From a virus, in the UHGV virus genome UHGV-1770886: a stretch of 17,434 nucleotides of DNA; one strand, written 5' to 3'. The notes beneath the pieces were generated by a model that saw only the letters and a program-made list of their open reading frames with translations, was not told the DNA's origin and did not search any database. This document shows, in pieces, positions 15,034 through 16,966 of the stretch (positions within the stretch are counted from its first letter, which is position 1; each line of letters begins with the position of its first letter). A program made the translations under genes and the position numbers.

Positions 15034-15531
15034 CTACATCTGATATTTTTTATCTCTTAAAGATTCATAAATCCGTTGACAAGTCACTCCTGCGATGTAG
15101 CGTTTGTCAGCAATTTCAGCATAAAGCTGAGCTTCTGCTGCAATATCTCCGAGCATGTTGGTGAGCATTCCTTCGGCGGCTTTGGTTGTTTTGCCTCTGA
15201 CGGCAGCGGCAAGATTTGCGGTATGCTGCGCTGCGTCAAGGCGTATGGCATATTTTGTTGCTTCGGCACGCAGCTGGTTAACACTATCAGACAGATCAGC
15301 AGCCCTGGCAGAAATTTCAGCGGCTTTCTGTTGTGCATCTTTAACAGCCTCATCACGGGATATACTTCGCCCCTGTTCAATTATTCGAGCAGCAAATTGG
15401 ACATTTACCTCTTGAGATAATTCGGCAGCATCACGCTCCGCCCATTTTTTTTGCCATCCTCTGTCGCTCCAGACATTACCTACGACAAATCCTACCAACA
15501 CGAGCAAAATCACCGTGAATATCTGATTCAC
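15034..15531 (-). CDS. Rz: i-spanin (Rz-like)
   Basis: 165 aa. N-terminal TM helix ([18 protein letters not shown]) followed by a charged coiled-coil-like periplasmic domain. GTG start overlaps the endolysin stop (GTGA). Directly after the endolysin. Confidence 0.75.
15084..15338 (-). CDS. Rz1: o-spanin (Rz1-like lipoprotein) embedded in the +1 frame of Rz
   Basis: From ATG 15338: [23 protein letters not shown] with lipobox-like LTSC, then Pro-rich [18 protein letters not shown]. Entirely inside Rz in another frame. At 84 aa it is longer than lambda Rz1 (60 aa), so the exact start is uncertain. Confidence 0.55.
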
Positions 15532-16061
15532 TGTTCTATCCCCCAGCAGGTTAATGCACTCTCCTGGTCACGACGAATAACCTGACCGTAACAATTATTT
15601 GAACGAATGCGGCAATCACGTCCACCGTCCTTTATCCACCAGCGAATCGCCTCGCATGCGCCTTTACGATCACCGGCATTAAGCCGCTTATAAAACGTCG
15701 ACGGAAAACACTTACCAGGGCCAATGTTATAGGGACAGAATGACGCGATACCGGCTTTCTGTGGCTCGGTCAGTGGAACTTTTATATTGCGCTCCACCCA
15801 TGCCAGCGCCTTATCCCGCTCAATGGCGTTAACCTGGGCGCATTTTTCCTTCGACAGTTTCATGCCCGGAATAACAGGTTTACCATCCACCACCGTGGCA
15901 CCCCGGCAAATGGTCCATATGCCGGAACCATCGCGGTATGCCTTTGTGTGGTTACCCTCTTTTTCGTCCAGAAACTGGTCAAGTATCTGAGGAGCAGACG
16001 CGCCTGCGGCAATCAGCGCCAGAACAGCAGCCGACAGGCCGTATCTGATTTTTACGTTCAT
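15528..16061 (-). CDS. SAR endolysin (T4-lysozyme-like muramidase with N-terminal signal-anchor-release domain)
   Basis: 177 aa. N-terminal weakly hydrophobic Gly/Ala-rich segment [17 protein letters not shown] typical of SAR domains. Candidate catalytic Glu/Asp/Thr in EKEG...YRDGSG...WTICRGAT, as in P1 Lyz / P21 R-type lysozymes. Pairs with the pinholin. Confidence 0.85.
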
Positions 16062-16195
16062 GGATATTTATCAGGATTTATCGGTTTCTGAACCCTGGAT
16101 ATGTTAAGCATTCAGCCCGTCAGTGGTAGGACACTGGCGCTCTGGTTAAGGATTATGGGGGATGCTGGCTGAGCTACCCCATCTGAGGATTTGAT

Positions 16196-16435
16196 ATGCA
16201 AAAAGAAGTTTTTATCAATATTACAGCTGACTGCTCATCTCCTGCATCAACAGCAAAAGAAATTGAAGCTCTTAAATATATGATTACAGTAATATTTTCC
16301 GTATTGGACCAGAATGAAAAAAATGGAATCATTCATCAATTAAATGAACATGTAAATAATCCATATATCAAAAGCAATCTGGAAATGCTGCTACCAATGA
16401 AAGATATTGGAAAACCAACTGAAACAAAAGGCTAA
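16196..16435 (+). CDS. hypothetical 79-aa protein on the opposite strand; AT-rich cargo ORF inserted between YdfR-like gene and endolysin
   Basis: ATG 16196 with GAGGAT 7 nt upstream. Markedly AT-rich relative to flanking phage genes. Stop overlaps the stop of the convergent minus-strand ORF. A hairpin CGCGCC-N10-GGCGCG follows at 16482..16503. No family recognised. Confidence 0.45.
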   Translation: MQKEVFINITADCSSPASTAKEIEALKYMITVIFSVLDQNEKNGIIHQLNEHVNNPYIKSNLEMLLPMKDIGKPTETKG

Positions 16436-16746
16436 CAACCAGTAATCGAGTTATCTGAACTGTTAATTTTTATGGTATACCGCGCCTCTGAACAGGGGCG
16501 CGTTTCTGGCAACAGCTCGTCCCCTTCACATAACCCGGCAGCAACATCCAGGAAGACCTGTCTGATGCTCCTTCTGGCTGCAGCCTCATAAAACTCCAGC
16601 GCGGCACCTTCAACACGGTCCAGCGAGATGTCCAGGTCAAAAATTTCACCGTCAAAGCGTTCTTTGTCCTGTAATGCTAAAGTTACCGTAACTTTATTCT
16701 CAAAATTGCGGATCCCTTTCACAATCAGTTCATAGTTTTGAGTCAT
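16432..16746 (-). CDS. hypothetical protein, YdfR-like (between holin and endolysin)
   Basis: 104 aa. ATG 16746 with GGAGAG upstream, 4 nt after the holin stop. Same position and size as the ydfR gene between essQ and rrrQ in the K-12 Qin prophage, as I recall it. Sequence similarity not verified. Confidence 0.5.
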   Translation of the reverse strand: MTQNYELIVKGIRNFENKVTVTLALQDKERFDGEIFDLDISLDRVEGAALEFYEAAARRSIRQVFLDVAAGLCEGDELLPETRPCSEARYTIKINSSDNSITGC

Positions 16747-16750
16747 TGAA

Positions 16751-16966
16751 TTACTCTCCCCGTGCCGCCTTACGACGGTCCTCTCTGATTTTGAAATACA
16801 GGTTAGTCAGATATGTCAGCAGCCCAAACAGCAGACTCCCCAGCACGCCTATTGCCGCCCACTGAGACGGGGAAACCCTGTCCAGCAACTGCAGGAACCA
16901 GTAGCCCGTTCCCACCGCTGACGTGGTGTATGACACACCTGTTGTGATTTTTTCCATCTGGTCCAT
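16751..16966 (-). CDS. S: class II pinholin, phage 21 S-like, with dual start (antiholin/holin)
   Basis: 71 aa from ATG 16966: [71 protein letters not shown], near-identical in the C-terminal two-thirds to recalled S21. Met1 and Met4 (MDQM) mirror the S21 71/68 dual start. GGGAGA upstream. The track's 106-aa N-terminal extension would run through the upstream terminator. Confidence 0.85.

Follow-up and report, generated by a model that had tools for sequence, protein, structure and literature searches.

Which lysis mechanism is encoded by a cassette in which two further open reading frames (ORFs) lie between the holin gene and the endolysin gene, and does its holin, which has two in-frame start codons, come as an antiholin/holin pair? 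These questions are raised by the UHGV virus genome UHGV-1770886, a stretch of viral DNA of 17,434 nucleotides (nt), the whole of which was analyzed and is referred to below as the window. An earlier note, made from the letters of the sequence, had described a pinholin with two starts and an endolysin of the signal-anchor-release (SAR) kind between positions 15528 and 16966. These coordinates proved exact: the cassette is read from the minus strand, with the holin ATG at 16966 and the end of the endolysin stop codon at 15528. The region very probably represents the lysis cassette in the late operon of a Qin/933W-like lambdoid Escherichia coli prophage, a cassette of the known pinholin/SAR endolysin type. 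The pairing is not new, having been published for lambdoid and Shiga toxin (Stx) prophages; a predicted SAR endolysin together with a pinholin is found in ∼99% of Stx phages (Pinto et al., PMC8136144), and the holins of Stx2a phages have been classed as pinholins belonging to the P21 holin S family (PMC10462455). The earlier outline of the cassette was right about the two ORFs between the holin gene (S) and the endolysin gene (R) and left out the spanin genes Rz and Rz1 (15531..15034). The features of the cassette and its leader regions are as follows (SD, Shine-Dalgarno sequence; aa, amino acids).

17005..17033, minus strand: terminator-like hairpin (terminator scan)
16974..16990, minus strand: RNA hairpin sequestering the SD (minimum-free-energy and centroid folds)
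16751..16966, minus strand: class II (S21-family) holin, 71 aa (PF04971, 9e-33)
16432..16746, minus strand: YdfR/DUF1327 protein, 104 aa (PF07041, 5e-40)
16196..16435, plus strand: orf79, 79 aa (phrog_21218, 1.9e-57)
16062..16195, minus strand: endolysin leader (anti-SD duplex, +0.6 kcal/mol)
15528..16061, minus strand: SAR-type endolysin, a GH24 muramidase of the RrrQ/933W-R type, 177 aa (PF00959, 2e-24)
15034..15531, minus strand: Rz-type i-spanin, RzpQ-like, 165 aa (PF10721 [DUF2514], 4e-38)
15084..15338, minus strand: Rz1-type o-spanin, 84 aa, embedded in Rz (ORF and phrog_11621, 2e-8)

The Pfam and PHROG matches of the cassette genes are far beyond chance. The holin matches PF04971, "Bacteriophage P21 holin S," over profile positions 1 to 63 of 64 with a score of 112.5 bits against a cutoff of 26, and it matches the holin families phrog_9876 and phrog_20 (PHROG E values, 2e-40 and 1.5e-33). 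It is 97% identical to S of phage 933W and identical to RefSeq protein WP_000372595.1 of E. coli KKa014. Hydropathy scales delimit a weakly hydrophobic first transmembrane domain (TMD1; I7-L28; Kyte-Doolittle value, 0.71; 50% G/A/S/T) and a strongly hydrophobic second one (TMD2; W36-F58; Kyte-Doolittle value, 1.48), and 69% of the residues in the C-terminal tail are charged. The Gly/Ser helix-packing motif G40-x3-S44-x3-G48 is a defining feature of S21 TMD2, and G40, S44, and G48 are all present in TMD2 of the window holin. With a length of 71 aa and a layout of two hydrophobic segments, a class I holin with three TMDs is impossible. The family membership, the two segments, and the charged tail thus agree with the description of an S21-like holin in the earlier note, and by analogy with the characterized members of its family the protein would be a pinholin, forming small, depolarizing holes too narrow for a cytoplasmic endolysin.

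The endolysin matches PF00959, "Phage lysozyme," and is 91% identical to 933W R, with complete identity in the hydrophobic segment (residues 7 to 24). It aligns with R21 (3hde) and with DLP12 RrrD (4zpu) from residue 12 onward, the hydrophobic N terminus included. Its N terminus has K4 and R6 and, after them, an uncharged stretch of 21 residues (Y7-L27) that is rich in Ala, Gly, and Ser; residues 7 to 27, encoded by nt 15981-16043, constitute the predicted SAR segment, the best 19-residue stretch of which is 53% G/A/S/T. SAR domains are recognized by the same arrangement, in which one to three basic residues precede a weakly hydrophobic TMD that is free of charges and has many G/A/S/T residues (PMC9239132). 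Summed Hessa free energies were +4.1 kcal/mol for the endolysin segment, +0.8 kcal/mol for that of R21, and −0.2 kcal/mol for the TMD of Rz. When the N termini of 102 endolysin homologs were surveyed, two to three basic residues preceded the hydrophobic stretch in 97, the median length of the stretch was 19 aa, and Cys was present within it in none. The SAR segment and the residues just after it are strongly conserved across genera.

In an alignment of 50 endolysin homologs from many enterobacterial genera, E35 and D44 of the catalytic E-8-D-5-T triad were invariant and T50 was at least 90% conserved. Eight cysteines were also invariant (C52, C74, C109, C118, C136, C150, C157, and C172), which fits an exported enzyme and suggests up to four periplasmic disulfides in the RrrQ/933W-R subfamily. 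Disulfide caging of the P1 Lyz type was considered and rejected: the hydrophobic segment is free of Cys in all 102 surveyed homologs, and the catalytic position is Asp, not Cys. An AlphaFold2 model of the endolysin had a mean predicted local distance difference test (pLDDT) score of 81.9, with residues 11 to 30 at ∼95. The top Foldseek matches of the model were R21, RrrD, and other GH24 lysozymes; it was superimposed on full-length R21 (3hde) and RrrD over 170 to 174 columns with a TMq of 0.68 to 0.69, compared to 0.52 for truncated R21 lacking the SAR segment (3hdf). Finally, 933W R has been handled as a SAR endolysin by the Young laboratory; expressed alone, it caused some cell rounding, and it caused more when combined with the Mu releasin (PMC9239132). 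The construct derives from a 2011 dissertation by Kuty on SAR endolysins. The sequence rules, the alignment with R21 and RrrD, and the identity of the segment to that of 933W R are all in keeping with the SAR-type N terminus proposed in the earlier note, and the resemblance of both proteins to 933W S and R upholds the pairing of pinholin and SAR endolysin as a coherent one.

Downstream of R, the Rz GTG start overlaps the endolysin stop codon by 4 nt (GTGA). Rz matches PF10721 and phrog_312, "Rz-like spanin" (4e-58), has a TMD at residues 4 to 22 (Kyte-Doolittle value, 2.34), and differs from KKa014 rzpQ at two residues. Rz1 (15338..15084) lies wholly within Rz in the +1 frame; a lipobox, L-T-S-C, was read from its sequence, its mature part is rich in Pro, and it matches phrog_11621, which is likewise labeled "Rz-like spanin." The two genes form an embedded two-component spanin.

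The genes present, their families and sequence features, their distribution, and the structural model were obtained from the window and its matches directly, whereas the events in the membrane and the succession of lysis steps given here are carried over from homologs. The S21-family pinholin would build up in the inner membrane while the Sec system exports the endolysin, whose uncleaved, weakly hydrophobic SAR segment would keep the enzyme tethered and inactive. The weakly hydrophobic TMD1 of the holin would then exit the bilayer and TMD2 would oligomerize into small pinholes, depolarizing the membrane. In R21, the SAR segment, once released, becomes refolded into the body of the enzyme, as the titles of its PDB entries reflect. 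Depolarization would similarly free the SAR segment of the window endolysin, which would refold into the enzyme body and render the muramidase (E35/D44/T50) active, and disruption of the outer membrane by the Rz and Rz1 spanins would follow. In the gene order, ydfR and orf79 form a passenger module that separates S from R. Release and activation on depolarization are proposed by analogy, the experimental support being that for the 91%-identical 933W R (PMC9239132).

Does the holin gene also encode an antiholin? The protein begins with MDQMEK, and the two in-frame ATGs assumed by the earlier note are real (Met1 at 16966 and Met4 at 16957). The M1-x-x-M4 pair is conserved throughout the family. 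Nearly all clusters keep Met1, whereas residue 2 can be Y, D, N, H, or F, which suggests that the first ATG is used. A hairpin with a 6-bp stem, CUUCCG-GAUAA-CGGGAG (16990..16974), covers the GGGAG SD of Met1 in both the minimum-free-energy and the centroid folds; the energy of the fold as a whole is not significant (z = −0.38). Among the five loci compared, 933W has the same SD-covering stem with a different loop, and the EssD-type loci have a stem of another sequence over the SD. Both starts are probably used, and, since the start pair is conserved and the SD lies under a hairpin, initiation is plausibly partitioned between them.

The antiholin character of the longer product is another matter. 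The antiholin character of S107 and S21-71 has been ascribed to an extra N-terminal residue with a positive charge (PMC9636201), and the dual-start motif has been defined by a basic residue between the two starts (PMC9671378). Such a residue is present in the S21/EssD branch (MKSM, MYRM, MLRM, MMKM, and MHRM) and absent from the 933W/EssQ branch (MYQM, MNQM, MHQM, and MFQM). The window allele, MDQM, belongs with the latter: its extension is Met-Asp-Gln, with neither Lys nor Arg between the starts. The net N-terminal charges of the long and short forms compare as follows.

S21: long form, +2; short form, +1
933W: long form, +1; short form, +1
Window holin: long form, 0; short form, +1

An extension without a basic residue does not support a charge-based antiholin, and the longer product probably does not act as one; on the accepted charge model, the long form should free TMD1 no less readily than the short form. 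The earlier note had read the Met1 product (71 aa) as a canonical antiholin and the Met4 product (68 aa) as the holin, as in phage 21. The family-wide start pair, the retention of Met1, and an SD-covering hairpin that, in the window, in 933W, and in the EssD-type loci, recalls the control of lambda S and S21 by translational partition all favor that reading. Against it stand the missing basic residue in the whole 933W/EssQ branch and the Asp of the window allele, a charge relation of 0/+1 where S21 has +2/+1, and the lack of a well-spaced SD for Met4. We therefore consider a canonical antiholin/holin pair unlikely, so that of the dual-start claim the two ATGs stand and the pair is doubtful. 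A more radical idea, which we put forward as speculative and rather improbable, is that the Met1 and Met4 products of the 933W/EssQ branch, which most Stx phages carry, are no antiholin/holin pair at all, that the long form is neutral or even faster triggering, and that the timing of lysis is set otherwise, with YdfR as one candidate.

YdfR comes into consideration through the position of its gene. The ydfR start lies 4 nt past the holin stop and uses a GGGGAG SD in the 3′ end of the holin gene (anti-SD duplex, −8.5 kcal/mol). In 933W, the same junction serves R, which begins 4 nt after the S stop with GGGGAG in the 3′ end of S and an anti-SD duplex of −8.5 kcal/mol (locus positions 531-550). 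In the window, the endolysin leader (compared at 16062-16081) is AT rich and without a detectable SD (anti-SD duplex, +0.6 kcal/mol). The comparison suggests that ydfR has moved into the translational-coupling junction used by R in 933W. The same endolysin leader is found in LF82/Perceval and in the Qin-like prophage of KKa014, with the R-proximal 78 nt conserved in KKa014. The gap at 16062-16195 was also considered as a possible tRNA-like fragment, which was rejected: ARAGORN found no tRNA or transfer-messenger RNA there, and the only Rfam match in the window is a cspA thermoregulator elsewhere.

The YdfR protein itself matches PF07041 and phrog_2735 (6e-55), the annotated function of which is unknown. 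It has no hydrophobic segment or TMD, and no match was found in PDB sequences, PADLOC, or NCBIfam. YdfR proteins share a conserved core of ∼78 aa and differ in their C-terminal tails; the AlphaFold2 model, built with 43 homologs, is poor (pLDDT, 57). The last ∼20 codons of the window allele (16432-16494) travel with orf79, other alleles diverge past residue ∼84 to 90, and many genome matches to ydfR span only nt 1 to 252. The stop codons of ydfR and orf79 overlap. Just past the orf79 stop and inside the ydfR tail (16470-16500), a GC-rich inverted repeat, GCGCCTCTG/CAGGGGCGC, was seen by eye; it might terminate orf79 and is absent from the terminator scan output.

The second intervening ORF, orf79, runs on the opposite strand with its own GAGGA SD and matches phrog_21218 over its full length. 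No match was found in Pfam, NCBIfam, or PADLOC, and the PHROG family is one of unknown function. At ∼30% GC, orf79 forms a trough (down to 0.30) in DNA of ∼50% GC, a typical moron signature; on this composition, orf79 is classed as an AT-rich moron. Other cassettes carry different opposite-strand ORFs in the same slot. A promoter scan found two sigma-70-like sites, compared to 5.7 expected by chance, and none for orf79.

The earlier note had called the separation of S and R by two ORFs unusual. The two ORFs are there, and the arrangement is common. Parts of the cassette match 4,437 of 5,426 complete E. coli genomes, YdfR-like DNA is present in 4,253 of the 5,426, and a YdfR homolog is encoded in 101 of the 427 phage records that encode this holin family; in every case inspected, ydfR directly follows S. 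The rarer partner is orf79, which was found in only 143 of the 5,426 genomes and is 100% identical in E. coli LF82 and its prophage Perceval. The five-gene layout is also annotated in E. coli S43, LF82, and phage Perceval. Perceval is an active, infectious plaque former that has been grown to 6e10 plaque-forming units/ml (PMC9928086). Because it forms plaques with the ydfR-orf79 insert, the two ORFs do not block lysis.

Comparison of nucleotide sequences across 14950-17120 revealed a mosaic. The upstream region, the holin gene, Rz, and the downstream region are 99 to 100% identical to the Qin-like prophage of KKa014, the segment comprising ydfR, orf79, and the leader is 99 to 100% identical to LF82/Perceval, and the endolysin region is ∼95 to 96% identical to both. 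None of the 5,426 complete E. coli genomes matches the whole 2.2-kb stretch at ≥99% identity over ≥80% of its length. The window cassette is a recombinant with Qin-like flanks and an LF82/Perceval-like core.

The cassette looks to be part of a lambdoid late operon that is intact. A complete lambda-like set was identified downstream of it on the same strand, comprising a DUF1441 small terminase, a gpA terminase, a lambda-family portal, a ClpP-capsid fusion, a cement protein, Z, U, tube, G, T, and the tape measure. The fusion is a 739-aa ORF (6273-8492, minus strand) with a ClpP-type protease domain (PF00574, 3e-36) and a major capsid domain (PF25209, 9e-55). The listed ORF and the portal ORF (8245..9825) share ∼250 nt, and the true start of the fusion therefore probably lies further downstream. 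At 14412-14828 (minus strand), in a position between Rz and the terminase genes that is also seen in Qin, a full-length cspA-type thermoregulator leader (Rfam RF01766; 110 bits versus a gathering score of 78) is followed by a CspI-like cold-shock gene of 71 aa (14673..14458). A GnsA/GnsB-family gene (13610-13876, minus strand; PF08178, 8e-33) is one of the small moron-like ORFs that separate the lysis genes from the packaging genes, and the ORFs flanking it (12545..12823 and 13956..14225) had no Pfam match.

Upstream of the cassette, a terminator-like hairpin with a 12-bp stem and a T run (17005..17033; −17.0 kcal/mol) is located ∼40 nt ahead of the holin start. The hairpin at the equivalent position in 933W has a partly different stem sequence and an energy of −18.7 kcal/mol. 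Late transcription antiterminated by Q presumably reads through the hairpin in the window. Further upstream (17121-17434, minus strand), ORF pieces are found in two frames, one in frame 2 that ends in AITPYTLMQAIAAEGDVVVSGATEPDWYYVIVLARHSRP followed by a stop codon and another in frame 1, and one of the pieces runs off the window edge. The 99%-identical locus of KKa014 has, immediately upstream of the holin gene, annotated pseudogenes for a DUF1737 protein and a hypothetical protein. The split pieces and the pseudogenes together suggest that the gene upstream of the holin is disrupted.

These surroundings bear on whether the cassette could instead be a decaying remnant of a cryptic prophage, nonlytic like Qin in K-12, with the inserted ORFs marking the loss of function. 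The nearest flanks are indeed Qin-like, including cspI, gnsB, and rzpQ, the endolysin gene lacks an SD, and the ORFs just upstream of the holin gene look frameshifted, with counterparts annotated as pseudogenes in KKa014. However, all five lysis ORFs are full length with their catalytic and structural residues intact, the terminase, portal, capsid, and tail genes downstream are all intact, and the identical arrangement of ydfR, orf79, leader, and R works in plaque-forming Perceval, so that decay appears very improbable.

Several points nevertheless weigh against a functional pinholin/SAR endolysin cassette. The prophage in the window is known from its genes and may or may not be inducible, and the SAR assignment is drawn from sequence rules, homology, and a model. 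Because R lacks an SD in this arrangement, the expression level of the endolysin is uncertain. The remaining points concern the N terminus of the endolysin, which, with its hydrophobic core and then ASA, looks like a classical Sec signal peptide except for a proline. The sole AXA-like site is A21-S22-A23|P24, and proline at +1 or at the X position blocks LepB (signal peptidase I) (PMC8385771). Among the surveyed homologs, 97 of 102 have proline at the site, either at +1 (ASA|P; 71 homologs) or at the X position, i.e., −2 (APA|S/T; 26 homologs), and the other 5 lack it. The T4 RI protein also provides a precedent, in that a claimed SAR domain proved to be cleavable (PMC8385771). That the N terminus is an ordinary cleavable signal peptide, yielding a soluble periplasmic enzyme controlled by other means, is nonetheless scarcely credible: the n-region (K4/R6), an h-region of ∼12 to 15 residues, the A-S-A motif, a segment less hydrophobic than that of R21, the five proline-free homologs, and the T4 RI precedent would be compatible with it, but the LepB-blocking proline is conserved, across genera, the segment and its following residues show far more conservation than is usual for disposable leaders, the confidently modeled segment aligns with the SAR helix of full-length R21 and is identical to that of 933W R, a protein handled as a SAR endolysin and released to a greater extent with the Mu releasin, and an active muramidase secreted constitutively would kill the cell before assembly was complete. 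A cleaved signal peptide or a cytoplasmic endolysin is therefore unlikely, judging from the sequence.

With a pinholin and a SAR endolysin as the preferred reading, the locus has little discovery value as such, given that the pairing is published and that annotated E. coli genomes and an active phage have exactly this gene order. Its interest lies in two features that both bear on the timing of lysis and hence on the release of Shiga toxin. The basic residue required by the textbook antiholin mechanism is missing from the commonest pinholin branch of E. coli and Stx phages, and in most E. coli genomes the uncharacterized YdfR/DUF1327 protein is translationally coupled to the holin. If the holin of this branch forms no antiholin pair, one candidate for setting the timing would be YdfR, whose gene holds the coupled slot after S and leaves R behind an SD-less leader.

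Among the closest known systems is phage 933W, an Stx2 phage of the H-19B/EssQ branch of the P21 holin S family. It shares the M-x-Q-M holin start without a basic residue (97% identity), an endolysin of 91% identity with the same SAR segment, and the 3′ end of S with its GGGGAG SD and 4-nt gap to the next gene. It differs in having R directly after S and an extra gene, ant, between R and Rz, whereas the window has ydfR and orf79 between S and R, an Rz of the DUF2514/RzpQ type, and Asp instead of Tyr at residue 2 of the holin. Phage 21 (S21/R21) and DLP12 (EssD/RrrD) share the holin Pfam family, the two TMDs, G40/S44/G48, and the M1/M4 pair with a predicted SD hairpin. R21 also shares with the window endolysin its fold, the E-8-D-5-T triad, and a Cys-free SAR segment, as expected for control of the R21 type and not of the P1 Lyz type. 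However, the phage 21 holin is only ∼80% identical and its endolysin ∼28% identical; S21 has Lys2 where the window has Asp2, and the window endolysin differs from R21 in its eight invariant cysteines and in a different SAR sequence with an ASA-P motif.

The two sources of the mosaic are close in gene order. The Qin cassette (essQ-ydfR-rrrQ-rzpQ/rzoQ with cspI, ynfN, and gnsB), as seen in KKa014, has an identical holin, an Rz that is two residues off, flanks of 99 to 100% identity, the downstream cspI/gnsB morons, and ydfR between S and R. It differs in a truncated ydfR of a different allele and in a 98-aa ORF in the moron slot, and the late region of the window is intact. LF82/Perceval has the same order as the window (S-ydfR-orf79-R-Rz), with ydfR two residues off, the endolysin four residues off, and orf79 and the leader 100% identical; it differs in an EssD-type holin (MKSM; 76% nucleotide identity) and in an RzpD-type Rz followed by bor/iss.

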